DNA of 47,453 bases from a virus (Duplodnaviria > Heunggongvirae > Uroviricota > Caudoviricetes). The position numbers were made by a program, and so were the translations under genes. The notes beneath the pieces were generated by a model. It was not told the origin of the DNA, searched no databases, and was given only the letters and a program-made list of their open reading frames with translations. The stretch lies in IMG/VR virus record IMGVR_UViG_2778261248_000001, one strand, 5' to 3'. Numbering within the stretch: the first letter of the stretch is position 1; each line of letters opens with the position of its first letter. Of the stretch, positions 38,876 through 47,453 are shown in pieces.

Positions 38876-41800
38876 ATGGGTAAAGGAAGCAGTAAGGGGC
38901 ATACCCCGCGCGAAGCAAAGGACAACCTGAAGTCCACGCAGTTGCTGAGTGTGATCGATGCCATCAGCGAAGGGCCGATAGAAGGTCCGGTGGATGGATT
39001 AAAAAGCGTGCTGCTGAACAGTACACCGGTGCTGGACAGTGAGGGGAATACCAATATCTCCGGCGTCACGGTGGTGTTCCGTGCAGGTGAGCAGGAGCAG
39101 ACACCGCCGGAGGGATTTGAATCCTCCGGCTCCGAGACTGTGCTGGGTACGGAAGTGAAATATGACACGCCGATCACCCGGACCATCACGTCGGCAAACA
39201 TCGACCGTCTGCGCTTTACCTTCGGTGTGCAGGCACTGGTGGAAACCACCTCAAAGGGGGACCGGAATCCGTCGGAAGTCCGCCTGCTGGTTCAGATACA
39301 GCGTAACGGTGGCTGGGTGACGGAAAAAGACATCACCATTAAGGGCAAAACCACCTCGCAGTATCTGGCCTCGGTGGTGGTGGATAACCTGCCGCCGCGC
39401 CCGTTTAATATCCGGATGCGCAGGATGACGCCGGACAGCACCACAGACCAGCTGCAGAACAAAACGCTCTGGTCGTCATACACCGAAATCATCGATGTGA
39501 AACAGAGCTACCCGAACACGGCACTGGTCGGCGTGCAGGTGGATTCGGAGCAGTTCGGCAGCCAGCAGGTGAGCCGTAATTATCATCTGCGCGGGCGTAT
39601 TCTGCAGGTGCCGTCGAATTATAACCCGCAGACGCGGCAATACAGCGGTATCTGGGACGGAACGTTTAAACCGGCATACAGCAACAACCCGGCCTGGTGT
39701 CTGTGGGATATGCTGACCCATCCGCGCTACGGCATGGGAAAACGTCTTGGTGCGGCGGATGTGGACAAATGGGCGTTGTATGTCATCGGCCAGTACTGCG
39801 ACCAGTCAGTGCCGGACGGCTCTGGCGGCACGGAGCCGCGCATCACCTGTAATGCGTACCTGAGCACACAGCGCAAGGCGTGGGATGTGCTCAGTGATTT
39901 CTGCTCGGCGATGCGCTGTATGCCGGTATGGAACGGGCAGACGCTGACGTTCGTGCAGGACCGACCATCAGATAAGGTGTGGACCTATAACCGCAGTAAT
40001 GTGGTGATGCCGGATGATGGCGCGCCGTTCCGCTACAGCTTCAGCGCCCTGAAGGACCGCCATAATGCCGTTGAGGTGAACTGGATTGACCCGAACAACG
40101 GCTGGGAGACGGCGACAGAGCTTGTTGAAGATACGCAGGCCATTGCCCGTTACGGTCGTAATGTCACGAAGATGGATGCCTTTGGCTGTACCAGCCGGGG
40201 GCAGGCACACCGCGCCGGGCTGTGGCTGATTAAAACGGAACTGCTGGAGACGCAGACCGTGGATTTCAGCGTGGGTGCTGAAGGGCTTCGCCATGTACCG
40301 GGCGATGTCATTGAAATCTGCGATGATGACTATGCCGGTATCAGCATCGGCGGGCGCGTGCTGGCGGTGAACAGCCAGACGCGGACACTGACGCTCGACC
40401 GTGAAATCACGCTGCCATCCTCCGGTACCACGCTGATAAGCCTGGTTGACGGAAGTGGCAATCCGGTCAGCGTGGAGGTCCAGTCCGTCACCGACGGCGT
40501 GAAGGTAAAAGTGAGTCGTGTTCCTGACGGCGTTGCCGGATACAGCGTGTGGGGGCTGAAGCTGCCGACGCTGCGCCAGCGCCTGTTCCGCTGCGTGAGT
40601 ATCCGTGAGAACGACGACGGCACGTATGCCATCACCGCCGTGCAGCATGTACCGGAAAAAGAAGCCATCGTGGATAACGGGGCGCACTTTGACGGCGACC
40701 AGAGCGGCACGGTGAATGGTGTCACGCCGCCAGCAGTGCAGCACCTGACTGCCGAAGTCACCGCAGACAGCGGGGAATATCAGGTGCTGGCGCGCTGGGA
40801 CACGCCGAAGGTGGTGAAGGGGGTGAGCTTTATGCTTCGCCTGACCGTGGCAGCGGACGACGGCAGTGAGCGGCTGGTCAGCACGGCCAGGACGACGGAA
40901 AACACATACCGCTTCAGGCAGCTGGCGCTGGGGAACTACAGGCTGACAGTCCGGGCGGCAAATGCGTGGGGACAGCAGGGCGATCCGGCATCGGTATCGT
41001 TCCGGATTGCCGCACCGGCAGCACCGTCGCGGATTGAGCTGACGCCGGGCTATTTTCAGATAACCGCCACGCCGCATCTTGCCGTTTATGACCCGACGGT
41101 ACAGTTTGAGTTCTGGTTCTCGGAAAAGCGGGTTGCTGATATCAGACAGGTTGAAACCACAGCCCGCTATCTTGGCACGGCGCTGTACTGGATAGCCGCC
41201 AGTACCAATATCAAACCGGGCCGTGATTATTACTTTTATATCCGCAGTGTGAACACCGTCGGCAAATCGGCATTCGTGGAGGCTGTTGGTCGGGCGAGCG
41301 ATGATGCGGAAGGTTACCTGGATTTTTTCAAAGGCCAGATAACCGAATCCCATCTCGGCAAGGAGCTGCTGGAAAAAGTCGAGCTGACGGAGGATAACGC
41401 CAGCAAACTGGAGGAGTTTTCGAAAGAGTGGAAAGACGCCAACGATAAATGGAATGCCATGTGGGGCGTCAAAATTGAGCAGACCGAAGACGGCAGGCAT
41501 TATGTCGCGGGGCTTGGCCTCAGCATGGAGGATACGGAGGAAGGCAAACTGAGCCAGTTCCTGGTTGCCGCTAACCGTATCGCGTTTATTGAACCGTCTA
41601 ATGGCAACACAAGACCAATGTTTGTTGGGCAGGGCGATCAGATATACATGAATGAAGTGTTCCTGAAATATCTGACGGCTCCCACCATTACCAGCGGCGG
41701 TAATCCTCCGGCATTTTCCCTGACACCGGACGGGCGGCTGACGGCGAAAAATGCCGATATCAGCGGTAGCGTGAATGCGAACTCCGGGACGCTCAACAAC

Positions 41801-42271
41801 GTCACGATTAACGAGAACTGTCGGGTTCTGGGAAAACTGTCCGCGAACCAGATTGAAGGCGATCTCGTTAAAACAGTGGGCAAAGCTTTCCCCCGGGACT
41901 CCCGTGCACCGGAGCGGTGGCCATCAGGGACCATTACCGTCAGGGTTTATGACGATCAGCCGTTTGACCGGCAAATTGTTATTCCAGCGGTGGCTTTCTG
42001 CGGTGCCAGACATGAGCGGGAGAATAGCGATACTTATTCGTCATGCCGCCTGATAGTGAAGAAAAACGGGGCTGAAATTTATAACCGAACGGCTCTGGAT
42101 AATACTCTGATTTACACGGGTGTTATTGATATGCCAGCAGGCAGTGGCGTAATGACACTGGAGTTTTCTGTATCAGCATGGTGGGTAAATGGTTGGTATC
42201 CCACAGCAAGTATCAGCGATTTGCTGGTTGTTGTGATGAAGAAAGCCACTGCAGGCATCACGATTAGCTGA
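38876..42271 (+). CDS. J: Tail tip / central tail fibre protein J
   Basis: 1131 aa; lambda gpJ size and position. Confidence 0.95.
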
Positions 42272-42290
42272 ATTTTAAAACCCAAATTCG

Positions 42291-42318
42291 GGCACCAGAA
42301 ATGGTGCCTTTTTTATTT
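42291..42318 (+). terminator. Rho-independent terminator between J and stf
   Basis: GGCACC-AGAAAT-GGTGCC followed by TTTTTTATTT. Confidence 0.6.
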
Positions 42319-42323
42319 GTGGA

Positions 42324-44726
42324 GTGAATATGGCAGTACAGATTTCAGGTGTGCTGAAAGACGGTGCAGGAAAACCGATACAGAACTGCACCATTCAGCT
42401 CAAAGCAAAACGTAACAGCACCACGGTTGTGGTAAACACGGTGGCCTCAGAAAATCCGGATGAAGCCGGGCGTTACAGTATGGATGTTGAGTATGGCCAG
42501 TACAGCGTTATCCTGCTGGTTGAAGGTTTTCCGCCTTCACATGCCGGGACCATCACCGTGTATGAAGATTCTAAGCCGGGGACGCTGAATGATTTTCTCG
42601 GTGCCATGACGGAAGATGATGTCATGCCGGAGGCATTGCGTCGTTTTGAGGAAATGGTGGAAGAAGCGGCACGCAACGCTGAAGCCGCCTCTCAGAGCGC
42701 AGCGGCGGCAAAGAAATCCGAAACTGCAGCGGCATCATCGAAGAACGCGGCGAAAACCTCAGAAACGAATGCAGCTAATAGTGCACAGGCGGCAGCGACC
42801 TCAAAGACTGCATCGGCAAACTCCGCGACAGCAGCCAAAAAATCAGAAACCAACGCGAAAAATAGCGAGACAGCCGCAAAGACGAGCGAAACCAACGCAA
42901 AGTCCAGCCAGACGGCAGCGAAAACCAGCGAAACGAATGCCAAAGCCAGTGAAACTGCGGCAAAAAACAGCCAGGTTGCAGCAGCCCAAAGCGAGAGCGC
43001 GGCAGCCGGTTCTGCGACTTCAGCAGCTGGATCAGCAACTGCTGCGGCTAACAGCCAGAAAGCTGCGAAGACGAGTGAAACTAACGCAAAGTCCAGCCAG
43101 ACGGCAGCGAAGACCAGCGAAACGAATGCCAAAGCCAGCGAAACTGCGGCGAAAAACAGTCAGGATGCAGCAGCCCAAAGCGAGAGTGCTGCAGCTGGTT
43201 CTGCAAGCGCGGCGGCTGCTTCTGCCACTGCATCAGCCAACAGTCAAAAAGCAGCAAAAACCAGTGAAACCAATGCAAAGACAAGCGAGACTGCAGCGGC
43301 GAACTCGGCGAAAGCATCGGCAGCAAGCCAGACAGCAGCTAAAGCAAGTGAAGACGCAGCCAGAGAGTATGCAAGTCAGGCAGCAGAGCCGTATAAATAT
43401 GTCTTACAGCCACTGCCTGATGTGTGGATACCGTTTAACGATTCACTGGATATGATTACGGGCTTTTCGCCGTCATATAAAAAAATTGTTATTGGTGATG
43501 ATGAAATAACGATGCCTGGCGACAAGGTTGTTAAGTTTAAACGCGCATCAACTGCCACATATATCAATAAATCAGGCGTATTTAGTGTTGCTAAAATTGA
43601 TGAGCCACGATTTGAAAAAGAAGGTTTATTGATTGAAGGACAGCGCACTAACTATTTTGTTAAATCCAATACTCCCGCTGAATGGACGAGTACCAGCAAT
43701 ATCGATAAAACTAATAATGGTGTTGATGAATTTGGTTTTTCATATGCCAAAATGCGAACAAAAGATAATATGACAGGACAATCATCTGCACTTAGTCTGC
43801 ATACATGCAGTGCATCCCGGGGGATTGATGTTAGTGGCGATAATAAGTATTGCACTGTTTCATGCAGGGTTAAAGCTCCTGATGGTCTTCGTTGTCGTTT
43901 GCGTTTTGAAAAATACGATGGGTCGGTTTATACATTTTTAGGAGATGCTTATTTAACTTTCGGAACTCTGATAATAGAAAAAACTGGCGGAGCAGCCAAT
44001 AGAATAGCAGCTACTGCAACTAAAGATCCGGTTACAGGGTGGATTTTCTATGAGGCAACTATAGAAGCTGTTGAAGGTGAAACCTTAATTGGCGCAATGA
44101 TTCAGTATGCGCCGAAAAAAGGTGGTATAACTGAAGCGGGAGATTATATTTACCTTGCAACACCACAATTTGAAAACGGCGGATGTGCTTCATCTTTTGT
44201 TATTACGACAACTGCACCCGCAACCCGCTCCAGTGATATGGTGACGATCCCAACTGAAAATAATATCTATAATAGACCGCTTACGTGTCTTGTCGAGGTT
44301 AATAGAAATTGGGGCGATATTCCTCCTAATGTAGCACCGCGTATTTTTGATTTTTCTGGTGTGCCACCTATTGAGTCAATTACATACGCTTTTAACACAA
44401 CTGAGAAATATTACGGTCAGCTTTATATGCAAACTTATAAAGCGTCGACAAGTACTTACGTTTCTAGTGTGTTTGCTGGTCGAACTGATGTTCGAAAATT
44501 CATTGGTGGTTTTAATATTTATTCTGATGGTACTAAACGAGTAGTTTCTAACGGTGAGGCTACTAAAACTATGAAAACGGAGTGGACGGGCGTAAAAACA
44601 CGGACCTTTATTCGAATTGGAGGTCAAGCCACATCGGGAACTCGTCATCTATTCGGCCATTTGAGAAATCTTCGTCTCTGGCATAAAGAATTAACTGATG
44701 CGCAAATGGGGGGGAGTATTAAATGA
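42324..44726 (+). CDS. stf: Side tail fibre protein: lambda Stf-like N-terminus and repeats, divergent AT-rich distal domain
   Basis: 800 aa; N-terminus MAVQISGVLKDGAGKPIQNCTIQLKAKRNSTTVVVNTV... lambda Stf-like; Ser/Ala/Thr-rich repeats; composition shifts to AT-rich from about 43380. Confidence 0.8.
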   Translation: MNMAVQISGVLKDGAGKPIQNCTIQLKAKRNSTTVVVNTVASENPDEAGRYSMDVEYGQYSVILLVEGFPPSHAGTITVYEDSKPGTLNDFLGAMTEDDVMPEALRRFEEMVEEAARNAEAASQSAAAAKKSETAAASSKNAAKTSETNAANSAQAAATSKTASANSATAAKKSETNAKNSETAAKTSETNAKSSQTAAKTSETNAKASETAAKNSQVAAAQSESAAAGSATSAAGSATAAANSQKAAKTSETNAKSSQTAAKTSETNAKASETAAKNSQDAAAQSESAAAGSASAAAASATASANSQKAAKTSETNAKTSETAAANSAKASAASQTAAKASEDAAREYASQAAEPYKYVLQPLPDVWIPFNDSLDMITGFSPSYKKIVIGDDEITMPGDKVVKFKRASTATYINKSGVFSVAKIDEPRFEKEGLLIEGQRTNYFVKSNTPAEWTSTSNIDKTNNGVDEFGFSYAKMRTKDNMTGQSSALSLHTCSASRGIDVSGDNKYCTVSCRVKAPDGLRCRLRFEKYDGSVYTFLGDAYLTFGTLIIEKTGGAANRIAATATKDPVTGWIFYEATIEAVEGETLIGAMIQYAPKKGGITEAGDYIYLATPQFENGGCASSFVITTTAPATRSSDMVTIPTENNIYNRPLTCLVEVNRNWGDIPPNVAPRIFDFSGVPPIESITYAFNTTEKYYGQLYMQTYKASTSTYVSSVFAGRTDVRKFIGGFNIYSDGTKRVVSNGEATKTMKTEWTGVKTRTFIRIGGQATSGTRHLFGHLRNLRLWHKELTDAQMGGSIK
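42875..43270 (+). repeat. 180-bp tandem duplication inside stf (60-aa repeat), plus partial third copy
   Basis: 42875-43054 and 43055-43234 are near-identical (protein AKTSETNAKSSQTAAKTSETNAKASETAAKNSQ...). Confidence 0.6.
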
Positions 44727-45004
44727 AAGATTTAACACTCAAATTTGCAGACAGGGCCGACTTTTCGGCCTTTATGGAGAGCATTGGCTATTATGATGAC
44801 GAGTCGATGCAGGATGATATTCTTATTGACGTGATAGGTAATGTGTACAAAGAAACCGGAGAACTTACTGAAGATGGCGAGCCGGTATGTGTTAAGGAGG
44901 ACGGATATTTTGTAAATGTGCGCATCATTAATGATTCGCAAATATCGTCATTATTCGATGAACACGCGGTTGCTGTTGAGCATCAACTCCGTAGCTGGAT
45001 GTGA
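44723..45004 (+). CDS. Small acidic hypothetical protein (93 aa) downstream of stf
   Basis: ATGA overlap with stf stop; AT-rich; no recognisable motif. Confidence 0.4.
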   Translation: MKDLTLKFADRADFSAFMESIGYYDDESMQDDILIDVIGNVYKETGELTEDGEPVCVKEDGYFVNVRIINDSQISSLFDEHAVAVEHQLRSWM

Positions 45005-45013
45005 GGAAGAAAA

Positions 45014-45718
45014 ATGGCTACATCGACAGTAATTCCTGATGACATCAAAACGCTAAAGGGAGATGTCAGTAAGGCAAAGGAAGATATTTCCTCAATTAAC
45101 GTAAAAGTATCAACGCTTCAGACTGATATGGACAGTGCAAAGCAGGATATCAGTACCAGATACACAAAAACAGAAGTGGATAATAAGCTGAAAAACAAAG
45201 TGGAAGTGAACGATCTGGAAAGTGGTCGTTATGGCGGAGATTTTTACCCGCTGACTGGCCGTGAAGCGTTTTATTTATGGGGATTGGGCACAACTACAGC
45301 GGCGGCAAATCTTTATCTTAATCCTGACCCTGCAATTTCGTCTGTGCTGCGGTCAACATCGTCTATCCGCTATAAACATTCAGTAGAGACGATAGATTCA
45401 GAGCACGCCGATCTCATTTTCAGGATGCGCCCTGTGTGGTACAGGTCGCAATGCGAAAATGACAGGCGTGACTGGGGATTCTATGGATTGATTGCCGAGG
45501 AAGTAGGAGAAATTGCCCCTCAGTTTGTTCACTGGCGACCAGCCAACGAAGATGATGCACCGGAAACCATTTCCAGCAATGGCCTTGTTGCCGAAGGTGT
45601 AATGTACGAACGTCTGGTTGTTCCACTGATTCACCATATCCAGAAACTGACTGAAAGAGTTGATGAACTTGAGTCAGAATTGAAGTTGTTATCAACTTCC
45701 CAAAGCGATATCGGATAA
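45014..45718 (+). CDS. Short tail-fibre-like protein with C-terminal intramolecular chaperone (endosialidase-chaperone / peptidase S74-like) domain
   Basis: 234 aa; N-terminal coiled coil; C-terminal SSIRYKHS...RPVWYRSQ...WGFYGLIAEEVGEIAPQFV...LVVPLIHHIQKL resembles the autoproteolytic chaperone domain of phage fibres. Confidence 0.5.
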   Translation: MATSTVIPDDIKTLKGDVSKAKEDISSINVKVSTLQTDMDSAKQDISTRYTKTEVDNKLKNKVEVNDLESGRYGGDFYPLTGREAFYLWGLGTTTAAANLYLNPDPAISSVLRSTSSIRYKHSVETIDSEHADLIFRMRPVWYRSQCENDRRDWGFYGLIAEEVGEIAPQFVHWRPANEDDAPETISSNGLVAEGVMYERLVVPLIHHIQKLTERVDELESELKLLSTSQSDIG

Positions 45719-45728
45719 AGGAGGAGTA

Positions 45729-46022
45729 ATGGATATAACACCTTTTCTTCATGCGCTTTGTGCTGTGGCTGCGCAGGTAATGATTGGTCTTTTTACCGGA
45801 AACTGGGTTTACGGGGCGATAGCCGGTTGTACGTTCTTCATTGCGCGTGAACACACCCAGGCAGAATATCGCTGGATTGAAATGTTCGGGCATGGCAAGC
45901 GGATTAACATGCCGTGGTGGGGCGGTTTTGATCCGCGTGTTTGGGATGTGGCAAGCCTGATAGATTTTGCTGTGCCGGTGGTGGCGTGTCTGCTGGTCTG
46001 GCTGTTGGTTAATCGTGGGTGA
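45729..46022 (+). CDS. Small membrane protein (about three TM segments), hypothetical
   Basis: 97 aa, hydrophobic stretches at N-terminus, middle and C-terminus; AGGAG SD upstream. Confidence 0.4.
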   Translation: MDITPFLHALCAVAAQVMIGLFTGNWVYGAIAGCTFFIAREHTQAEYRWIEMFGHGKRINMPWWGGFDPRVWDVASLIDFAVPVVACLLVWLLVNRG

Positions 46023-46032
46023 AAAAAGGTGA

Positions 46033-46152
46033 GCTGTATATGCAACGGAGGAAGAAACCCCGTTGCTGGAAGCCTGGAAAAAGTATCGGGTGTTGCTGAA
46101 CCGTGTTGATACGTCAACTGCACAGGATATTGAATGGCCAGCACGGCCGTAG
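46033..46152 (+). pseudogene. tfa: 3'-terminal remnant of a tail fibre assembly (Tfa) gene
   Basis: Open frame without start encodes ...[34 protein letters not shown]-stop, the conserved Tfa C-terminal motif; the N-terminal majority of the gene is missing. Confidence 0.6.
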
Positions 46153-46249
46153 GGTAAAACATATAAATTCTATAATTAGATGTATCTTTCCATTTACGGC
46201 AAGGAAGGGGGCTTGGAAGACGTAAAGCATCTCACACCGAGATTATTTT

Positions 46250-46840
46250 TTATATGTCAGGTGTCTGAAGTTTTGCTTTGGCTCTTAAAATGGTTTGCCG
46301 CGAGGTTTTGAATTCCCGGGCAATGGCACTTATACTTACACCTGACTTAATTCGTTCGAATACCACCTGTTTCTGTTCTTCATTTAACACAGGTGGTCGA
46401 CCAAAACGTTTCCCTGCGCCCCGGGCTCTTACTATCCCGGAATGAGTGCGTTCAAGTAAAAGGTCTCGTTCAAATTCAGCGACTGCTGAAATTACTTGCA
46501 TCATCATTTTTCCTGTTGGACTGGTCAGGTCAATGCCCCCCAATGCTAAGCAATGCACTCTGATACCTGTTTCGGTCAGTTGTTCCACTGTTTTCCTGAT
46601 ATCCATTGCATTACAACCAAGGCGATCCAGTTTTGTCACAATCAATTGATCACCACATTTCAGGCGAGCAAGCAACCGGTTAAAACCAGGACGCTCACTG
46701 GTTGCTGCTGAGCCGCTAATGTGTTCTTCGATTATTTGCTGAGGTTTGATTTTAAAACCTGCACTTTCGATTTCCCGGCGTTGATTTTCGGTGGTCTGAT
46801 CCAGAGTTGATATCCGACAGTAAGCAAAAATTCGAGACAT
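46250..46840 (-). CDS. pin: Serine recombinase, Pin/Gin/Hin-type DNA invertase
   Basis: 196 aa; N-terminal catalytic [15 protein letters not shown] (active-site Ser), C-terminal HTH; same family as prophage Pin invertases. Confidence 0.85.
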
Positions 46841-46928
46841 AGTGAGACTCTATACGAAATTGGTGTACATATCATAATGCATATCCAAAAATTATTTCGC
46901 TTATTATTGCACATATTTGTATGTATAC

Positions 46929-47027
46929 GTTCGAAAATAAACAAATTCGGATGCAGTCCCGTAATTTTGGTGTAACCCAAAATCGATTTTTTGAAAAATG
47001 GCTTTAACTCGGTTTGTTTTTCGAACT
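46929..47027. repeat. Imperfect inverted repeats upstream of pin (TTCGAAAATAAACAAA / TTTGTTTTTCGAA)
   Basis: 46929-46952 and reverse complement of 47006-47027 share TTCGAAAA..AAACAAA; contains AAACCGAG resembling gix/hix half-site sequence. Confidence 0.3.
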
Positions 47028-47219
47028 CCGGGCGGACTCGAGAAAGACGAATAATAGTGTTGTATGTTGTTTTAGCCAGATTTCAATTTGTTTGGTCTTG
47101 GAAAAGTGGAGCAAAAAGTTGTTAAAGTGGAAAAATGGTAAAAAAGTAGGTTGTTGCGGCATAACGTAGTTGTTGATATTTTTTAATGCATTGAAAAATT
47201 ATTTTTCAGGGGGTGTTTA

Positions 47220-47453
47220 TTACACTTTACCATTTAAATTTTGGTTGTCTTTAAGAACTGATATCGCTGTTTGTAATAATTCTTTGTTATCCAGCCATGA
47301 CTTTTTCTTTATGTTTCCTTCAATGTAATCAAGCAATGTTCTGGTATTGATAGGTCTTCCCTGTTTTGCCACTTCCACGACAGCATCTCCCAGGATAATT
47401 CTGACTTCAGGAAGCTGCGCGGGGAACCACTTTAGGGTGTCTTTTGATTTCAT
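47220..47453 (-). CDS. ydfK: YdfK/YnaE-like small prophage protein
   Basis: 77 aa, MKSKDTLKWFPAQLPEVRIILGDAVVEVAKQGRPINTRTLLDY...; start codon is the last three bases of the window. Confidence 0.7.
   Translation of the reverse strand: MKSKDTLKWFPAQLPEVRIILGDAVVEVAKQGRPINTRTLLDYIEGNIKKKSWLDNKELLQTAISVLKDNQNLNGKV

Follow-up and report, generated by a model that had tools for sequence, protein, structure and literature searches.

Side tail fibres make the first contact of lambdoid phages with their hosts, and engineered lambda particles depend on swapping them. Here we describe the side tail fibre locus of a lambdoid Escherichia coli prophage, IMG/VR record IMGVR_UViG_2778261248_000001; the window is the whole stretch of 47,453 nucleotides (nt) that was analysed. 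Between the side tail fibre gene stf and a 3' remnant of tfa lie three small genes, orf93, orf234 and orf97, named after the lengths of their products in amino acids (aa) (Table 1). A sequence-only reading of the interval 44723-46152 had listed an acidic 93-aa protein, a short self-cleaving fibre with an N-terminal coiled coil and an endosialidase-type chaperone domain, a 97-aa membrane protein with three transmembrane segments, and a genuine 3' fragment of a displaced ancestral tfa. All four features are found at these positions, and the results given below bear out each of these descriptions; how the features belong together is seen differently here.

The region is 100% identical to the prophage adjoining prfC in strain A22, and the induced phage PhiR49_1 (PV340568) shows 99% identity to the window across the fibre region. 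Of 5426 complete E. coli genomes, 721 (13%) contain at least 80% of the interval. Existing annotation calls the genes hypothetical or "tail fiber domain-containing" only, and literature searches found no study of orf93, orf234 or orf97. The pairwise ratios of nonsynonymous to synonymous substitution rates (dN/dS) are 0.11-0.37 for orf93, 0.19-0.23 for orf234 and 0.16-0.42 for orf97; these low values, together with hundreds of homologues of each, indicate that the three are real genes under purifying selection. The packing is operon-like: the ATG of orf93 overlaps the stf stop codon (ATGA), and both orf234 and orf97 have a Shine-Dalgarno-like sequence in front of their start. On the + strand, the stretch 44700-46250 showed no promoter- or terminator-like site, and the nearest promoter-like site on that strand is at 46308-46336, past the tfa remnant.

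Table 1. Positions of the genes and features of the side tail fibre locus in the window
Feature	Product	Position	Strand	Remark
gpJ		38876-42271	+	start of the gene order, upstream of stf
stf	side tail fibre of 800 aa (GTG start)	42324-44726	+	start at 42330 according to the Prokaryotic Genome Annotation Pipeline (PGAP)
orf93	acidic alpha/beta protein, 93 aa	44723-45004	+	
orf234	putative minimal distal fibre, 234 aa	45014-45718	+	
orf97	three-helix membrane protein, 97 aa	45729-46022	+	
tfa 3' remnant		frame 46033-46149; homologous part 46042-46149; stop 46150-46152	+	
invertase gene	pin-type serine invertase, 196 aa	46250-46840	-	Pfam Resolvase and HTH_7

The replaced block and the tfa scar

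Phage 2H10 encodes an Stf of 1117 aa and a Tfa of 191 aa, and the same invertase gene comes next; the phage aligns to the window only at 42313-42679 and 46041-47453. To judge from these limits the replaced block is about 3.4 kilobases (kb) long, from about 42680 to about 46040; it starts after the attachment domain of Stf, not at the stf stop codon, and takes in the shaft and the receptor-binding end of Stf, so that stf from about 42680 onward belongs to the swapped-in module. Since phages with a complete stf-tfa pair, such as 2H10, align only outside the block, the ancestral tfa must have been displaced, as the sequence-only reading had proposed. Its further claim, that the three genes form a single cassette standing where lambda has tfa, is at variance with a block that begins inside stf, and also with the separate associations described below: orf93 goes with the C-terminal module of Stf, orf234 occupies an exchangeable slot and orf97 is independent of both. 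Compared with the lambda-type Stf-Tfa systems of 2H10 and Ur-lambda, the window has kept the Stf attachment domain, the place after J and the last 36 codons of tfa, whereas the shaft and the receptor-binding end of Stf have been replaced and the Tfa chaperone has been lost.

The remaining piece of tfa corresponds to residues 156-191 of the 191-residue Tfa of 2H10, to which it is identical at 33 of 36 positions, and it matches positions 95-130 of the 131 in Pfam Caudo_TAP (PF02413) with E=3e-16. There is a stop codon in frame at 46030-46032 and no ATG; the only candidate starts in frame are TTG and GTG codons. A complete Tfa frame would have a start codon and run to about 190 aa; here 36 homologous codons are left. 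PGAP treats the identical stretch in A22 as a tfa pseudogene ("missing N-terminus"), and a pseudogene is also annotated in E. coli 7/2. For comparison of alleles we used 80 E. coli prophage loci from IMG/VR, all holding orf97; the piece has been kept in 40 of the 59 loci that have enough downstream sequence. It is best described as a probable recombination scar at the right end of the replaced block.

Other relatives match the window within different limits. PhiR63_1 matches it except for the receptor-binding region of Stf and 45058-45727, PhiR55_1 matches 45058-46007, and the match is limited to 45717-46098 in phage 21 and to 45729-45971 in the P22-like phage JEP4. These differing limits argue that each gene is a separately exchangeable unit with conserved junctions. 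In phage 21 (OL657228, 4886-8335) orf97 and the tfa scar are followed by the sitABCD operon for an iron/manganese transporter on the opposite strand, and this position suggests that the slot 3' of orf97 serves as an insertion site for cargo.

Stf and its putative partners orf93 and orf234

The N-terminus of Stf is a tail-attachment domain (Pfam phage_tail_N, residues 3-133, E=9e-70), and its middle part is a shaft of Ala/Ser/Lys repeats. The C-terminal module of about 445 aa begins at PLPDVWIPFNDSL and contains a domain resembling galectins and the head spike of gene transfer agents (GTA): residues 436-636 match NCBIfam GTA_spike_fiber with E=1.6e-15, and the PDB sequences gave a weak match to 6tb9, the head spike fibre of RcGTA (Rcc01080). 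The C-terminal half is 44-49% identical to the KarlJaspers lateral fibre, the Stf of phage 21 and Gp22 of IrisVonRoten, and the conserved C-terminal module of these proximal fibres (PLPDVWIPFNDSL... to ...RHLFGH.RN.R.WHK) is present in the Stf of the window, where aa 361-444 form a conserved segment. In the shaft region (42694-43315) there is a tandem duplication of 189 nt, with copies at 42822-43010 and 43011-43199 that are 83% identical, and many periodic repeats of 21 and 42 nt encode "SETNAK" units rich in Ala, Ser and Lys. Such repeats could let the length of the shaft vary by slippage or recombination.

The orf93 protein has an isoelectric point of 4.1, with 21 Asp and Glu residues against 7 Lys and Arg. 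It is predicted to fold as an alpha/beta sandwich, for which no informative structural relative was found, and its profile gave no match among the PDB sequences or in NCBIfam. The family is represented in 179 phage records. An acidic gene of about 92 codons whose start overlaps the stop codon of the fibre gene is found in phage 21, KarlJaspers, JLBYU40, KarlBarth (Dhillonvirus), CarlMeissner (rV5-like) and IrisVonRoten, and in the Queuovirinae JenP1/JenP2, KurtStettler and VogelGryff the homologue overlaps the tail fibre gene according to the annotation of the hit table only. In six phage groups orf93 goes with the C-terminal module of Stf, whether a mini-fibre is present or not (phage 21 has none), and among the IMG/VR loci the orf93 alleles track the alleles and lengths of Stf, while the 234-aa and 346-aa distal fibres swap independently. 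On these sequence comparisons orf93 is the conserved small partner of this type of fibre. It is more likely a dedicated assembly factor for the C-terminal module of Stf than a mere adaptor, because it is coupled to Stf translation, co-varies with Stf and is present without a distal fibre; it may also be a docking platform.

The orf234 protein begins with a putative docking motif (aa 1-16, 45014-45061), which runs into a coiled coil of five heptads (aa 11-46) followed by a tip of about 45 aa. The a and d positions of the heptads (11, 14, 18, 21, 25, 28, 32, 35, 39, 42 and 46) are occupied by I, L, V, A, I, I, V, L, M, A and I with an unbroken 3-4 spacing, and weak Pfam matches to coiled-coil families agree with this. 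The C-terminal half holds a Peptidase_S74 domain (aa 116-172, 45359-45529), so that the coiled-coil heptads stand before it and a C-terminal helix after it. The match to the Pfam profile PF13884 scores 27.3 bits, above the gathering cut-off of 22 (E=4.6e-6), and takes in positions 1-57 of the 58 in the profile. A second match, with E=5e-7, is to the solved structure of the DT57C LtfA C-terminus (8hqz_d), the C-terminal helix corresponding to LtfA 1050-1070. Alignment to MYRF and LtfA points to Ser116 (45359-45361) and Lys121 (45374-45376) as the catalytic pair. They lie in the motif SSIRYK, which is kept in all 28 distinct orf234-type proteins of the IMG/VR loci (227-241 aa).

S74 domains such as those of endosialidases and T5 pb1 act in cis on their own chain and are then cut off. 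Endosialidases, T5 pb1 and LtfA have the S74 domain, the Ser-x4-Lys pair and the C-terminal helix in common with orf234; there, however, the domain ends a fibre or spike of roughly a thousand residues or more, whereas in orf234 it makes up half of 234 aa.

The closest relatives of orf234 are found in about 45 T1-like phages (55-60% identity over residues 1-217), and only four of the lambdoid phages in the phage collection carry it. It also matches the C-terminus of the fibre family phrog_3299 (1147-1384 of 1385, E=5e-139). The N-terminal motif MATSTVIPDDIKTLK is common to orf234, which is of the shortest size class among the distal fibres seen, and the longer fibres of JLBYU40, IrisVonRoten (Gp24), KarlBarth and PhiR63_1, and in the IMG/VR loci the motif M[AV]T.T.IP.DI..LK occurs in 43 of 44 distinct distal-fibre proteins. 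A 346-aa S74 protein stands in place of orf234 in PhiR63_1 (45058-45727) and nothing stands there in phage 21; orf234 fills an exchangeable slot for a distal fibre. In about 45 of the 80 loci, Stf and orf93 are accompanied by an orf234-type gene and in about 27 by the 346-aa type, and about 5 are without a distal fibre.

Taken together, the C-terminal half of Stf, orf93 and orf234 are the lambdoid version of a known arrangement of three genes. In it a proximal fibre with an end resembling galectin or the GTA spike comes first, an acidic protein of about 92 aa that is coupled to it in translation comes second, and a distal fibre that opens with the N-terminal motif and ends in an S74 domain comes third. 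T5-like and T1-like phages, Dhillonvirus and, on the annotation of the hit table only, Queuovirinae have this arrangement, and rV5-like phages have a looser form of it. The sizes differ: a lateral fibre, 92 aa and a 225-aa S74 protein in the T1-like KarlJaspers, 790 aa, 92 aa and a 589-aa S74 fibre in the T5-like JLBYU40, and 796 aa (Gp22), 92 aa (Gp23) and a 574-aa S74 fibre (Gp24) in the T5-like IrisVonRoten. In the BASEL-2 study Gp24 was modelled as a T-shaped distal fibre sitting on the proximal fibre Gp22, which has a C-terminal galectin-like domain, and the small gene between the two was not discussed (PMC11990801).

The gene order and spacing of the IrisVonRoten (Bas32) genes 22, 23 and 24 are those of the window. 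Gp22 is 45% identical to the C-terminal half of Stf over 745 columns, Gp23 belongs to the same family as orf93, and Gp24 has the N-terminal motif and the C-terminal S74 chaperone in common with orf234. The differences concern mainly the distal part. Gp24 aligns with orf234 only at residues 1-28 and 86-226, and its middle of about 400 residues is without counterpart; where Gp24 has two receptor-binding domains, orf234 has a stretch of about 45 residues that separates its coiled coil from the predicted cleavage site, and the large T-shaped pair of domains is absent from it. Moreover, IrisVonRoten is a virulent T5-like phage without orf97 and without a tfa scar, whereas the window is a lambdoid prophage. 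The T1-like Drexlerviridae come closest in the size of the distal protein, which is in the same class of about 225 aa. In KarlJaspers (bas06_0037/0036/0035) the orf93 homologue is 54% identical and the C-terminal half of the fibre 44% identical to the proteins of the window. These phages are virulent, a gene for a sugar-binding protein follows in place of orf97, and the N-terminus of their fibre differs, as it attaches to a different tail. The fibre part of the locus is a minimal lambdoid form of the two-part lateral fibre described in T5-like phages and annotated in T1-like ones. The sequence-only reading had seen in orf234 a second mini-fibre. This idea is reasonable, but orf234 makes more sense as an extension at the distal end of Stf than as a fibre of its own.

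The membrane protein orf97

The orf97 protein has hydrophobic stretches at about residues 1-39 and 73-97, and its AlphaFold model (predicted local distance difference test, pLDDT, 89.8) contains three helices at 4-23, 26-52 and 74-96. Its loop, AREHTQAEYRWI..G.GKR.NMPWWGGFDPRVWD, is near-invariant; R40, E41, H42, E46 and a WWGGFD motif are invariant. The protein is a member of phrog_1443 and has relatives in 564 clusters, with 337 representatives at 50% identity; 70 records of the phage collection carry it, including phage 21 and many wild lambda isolates. The phages concerned are temperate ones of siphovirus, myovirus and podovirus type from Enterobacteriaceae, Aeromonas and Comamonas, and 58-95% identity is retained across these hosts. 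There was no match to orf97 in Pfam, NCBIfam, PADLOC or the PDB sequences. Among 1.84 billion representatives no fusion to a known domain was found, and every relative stands alone, with a length of about 50-146 aa.

What lies in front of the gene varies a great deal. A close homologue (58-80% identity) follows directly 3' of the P22-like tailspike in JEP4, of S74-bearing fibres in P2-like prophages of Aeromonas and Leclercia, and of a pectate-lyase-type Stf in Citrobacter, and in Comamonas it lies 3' of a giant gpJ and a 72-aa gene. In the P2-like prophages of Aeromonas media and Leclercia the fibre has 939-964 aa (Phage_tail_fib and Peptidase_S74) and the orf97 homologue replaces the G-type tfa of P2; three more genes come after it, one of them HP1_ORF34-like. 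We also considered that orf97 might be tied to a type of receptor through a receptor-binding domain shared by the JEP4 tailspike and Stf, but no such sharing was found. The sequence of orf97 is thus constant while the adjoining receptor-binding domains are unrelated, and it cannot work by masking a particular receptor; action on a conserved envelope target is more likely. A stand-alone homologue, 58% identical, is found in the chromosome of Aeromonas rivipollensis (CP149130; locus L011, 6001-6309) between a pirin gene and the genes for RIO1 and a lipid A acyltransferase, with no phage genes within 6 kb, which means that the family is not confined to prophages. By its distribution orf97 is an independent module that travels apart from the fibre genes.

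Small genes for envelope proteins behind receptor-binding genes are known from other phages. The cor locus lies immediately 3' of the tail fibre genes (PMC13164509), and P2 has a hotspot for accessory and defence genes inside its tail genes (PMC13586616). The position of orf97 after the receptor-binding genes is like that of cor (T1, phi80, N15), llp (T5), HK97 gp15 and P2 Z/fun, to none of which it shows similarity in sequence or fold; nor was similarity of either kind found to any described exclusion or defence family. It should be noted that Cor and Llp are lipoproteins that go with a specific receptor. The orf97 protein, in contrast, is integral to the membrane and remains conserved although the receptor-binding proteins beside it are unrelated. 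Purely by analogy with these genes we favour an exclusion-type or envelope-modifying role for orf97, and among the three genes it is the only one to which the idea of exclusion or immunity, put forward for the mini-fibre together with the membrane protein in the sequence-only reading, can be applied. A bolder proposal would make orf97 an undescribed inner-membrane family responsible for a new form of exclusion or envelope remodelling, and orf93 a new class of assembly factors replacing Tfa for fibres of the galectin/GTA-spike type in at least six phage groups; we put this forward tentatively and with more doubt than confidence.

Explanations of the locus and neighbouring genes

The explanation that we favour, and consider fairly probable, is that the locus is a replacement module for the side tail fibre in which orf234 is the distal extension of Stf, orf93 its partner and orf97 a separate gene. 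The interval 44723-46152 would be the downstream two-thirds of this module of about 3.4 kb. By recombination the module would have replaced tfa codons 1-155 together with the 3' part of a lambda-type stf, the conserved coding sequence for the Tfa C-terminus providing the right-hand joint. orf234 would trimerise through its S74 domain and cut itself at Ser116, and the remaining 115 residues, with docking peptide, coiled coil and small tip, would cap or extend the distal end of Stf. orf93 would be produced along with Stf and be its dedicated factor for assembly or adaptor for docking. Such fibres presumably fold without Tfa, so that loss of tfa would cost nothing, which would explain how most of the gene could be deleted on entry of the module. 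orf97 would be expressed from the late operon and act on a conserved target in the host envelope, not on the receptor of the fibre, most likely to exclude incoming phages or to change the envelope in some other way that helps the phage.

Several points weigh against this explanation. The model for the attachment of orf234 is built on gene order, on the N-terminal motif and on a published AlphaFold-Multimer prediction for a distant relative. Mature orf234, with 115 aa, is far shorter than the characterised distal fibres and lacks the T-shaped domains of Gp24, and it may lack receptor binding altogether. This type of Stf and orf93 occur without any distal fibre in phage 21 and in about 5 of the 80 IMG/VR loci, which shows that orf234 is dispensable and that orf93 is not only a docking adaptor. 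As to orf97, it has no predicted promoter of its own, its homologues in distant Aeromonas phages are not beside recognisable receptor-binding genes, and one copy lies in a chromosome away from any prophage; its link to the fibre genes may reflect only a favoured slot for insertion.

One could instead suppose that orf234 works in trans as a chaperone of Stf, its S74 domain aiding trimerisation of Stf without orf234 being built into the virion. Its mature part is indeed very short (115 aa), it occupies the place expected for tfa, and the T1-like homologue bas06_0035 is annotated in BASEL as "putative lateral tail fiber chaperone". This label apparently comes from the name of the Pfam family and not from an experiment, and known S74 domains, to which the LtfA match relates orf234, work in cis and are then cut off. 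Phage 21 moreover has the same type of Stf without orf234, and the N-terminal motif is common to distal fibres of 574-589 aa that were modelled as structural (PMC11990801). We consider a chaperone acting in trans unlikely, though with some chance of being right. Very improbable, on the other hand, is that orf234 is the decaying 3' fragment of a longer fibre gene and as functionless as the scrap of tfa. The whole protein does align to the last 240 residues of the 1385-aa family phrog_3299, and BASEL-1 noted that such fibres are either a single polypeptide or divided among two or more proteins. The reading frame is nevertheless intact in 28 distinct variants of 227-241 aa, all with SSIRYK, its dN/dS is about 0.2, it has its own Shine-Dalgarno sequence and ATG, and a separate gene of about 225 codons is conserved in about 45 virulent T1-like genomes; its N-terminus is the shared start motif and not internal fibre sequence.

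The hypothesis that the three genes jointly form an exclusion or immunity module unrelated to fibre assembly takes its appeal from the small membrane protein behind receptor-binding genes, which recalls cor, llp and HK97 gp15, and from the accessory and defence hotspot which P2 has among its tail genes (PMC13586616). It is scarcely credible in view of the independent assortment of orf93, orf234 and orf97 and of the homologues of orf93 and orf234 in the fibre loci of strictly virulent T1- and T5-like phages, and none of the three proteins matches PADLOC models or PHROG families annotated as superinfection exclusion. For orf97 alone, a function in the late programme of the phage itself was considered, either in the timing or completion of lysis or in the handling of glycans for the escape of progeny. 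Its strong Shine-Dalgarno sequence, the lack of a separate promoter and the tight coupling to the late operon would fit this, as would the overlap of the homologue with the tailspike stop codon in JEP4, the constant location beside fibres or spikes without a Tfa-type chaperone, and a sequence conserved whatever the type of receptor-binding domain. We nevertheless hold it to be quite unlikely, though still a live alternative: similarity to holins, spanins or glycan-modifying proteins was not found in Pfam, PHROGs or NCBIfam, and the stand-alone chromosomal copy of Aeromonas fits a gene beneficial to the host better.

The locus as a whole is a case of ordinary tail-fibre mosaicism, and its interest lies in two conserved families and a clear map of exchange joints. 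A common fibre type of E. coli prophages turns out to be a kit of several parts, presumably independent of Tfa, which virulent T1- and T5-like phages share, and the mapped joints tell which pieces to move together when host range is redesigned. orf93 and orf97 represent two widespread, conserved and uncharacterised families beside receptor-binding genes, and both are straightforward to test since the culturable phage PhiR49_1 is nearly identical across the region.

Downstream of the tfa scar lies the gene for the invertase. As in Mu G, P1 C and e14 P with their invertases Gin, Cin and Pin, a Pin-family invertase is found just downstream of the fibre genes; unlike these systems, the window has neither crossover sites nor an inverted duplicate of the fibre and tfa ends. 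A search across the window for the hix/gix-type crossover core with up to 2 mismatches gave none, and within 42000-47453 there is no inverted repeat longer than 23 nt. A Pin-driven invertible fibre segment, as in the switches of Mu G or e14 P, was rejected on the ground that crossover sites and inverted fibre ends are lacking. The invertase gene is a neighbour outside the fibre module; it looks like an orphan, similar to pinQ and pinR of K-12.

Upstream of the fibre genes, the gap between gpJ and stf (42272-42323) is 52 nt long, is without lom and contains a terminator-like hairpin at 42290-42309; in the close relatives PhiR49_1, IdasGreatGrand and PhiR55_1 lom is present at this place. At the other end, an open reading frame of 77 aa on the - strand (47220-47453) ends exactly on the last base of the window and is annotated as the cold-shock protein YdfK in A22. 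The neighbourhood pin-ydfK-ynfT recurs at the Qin-type site of E. coli strain 7/2.

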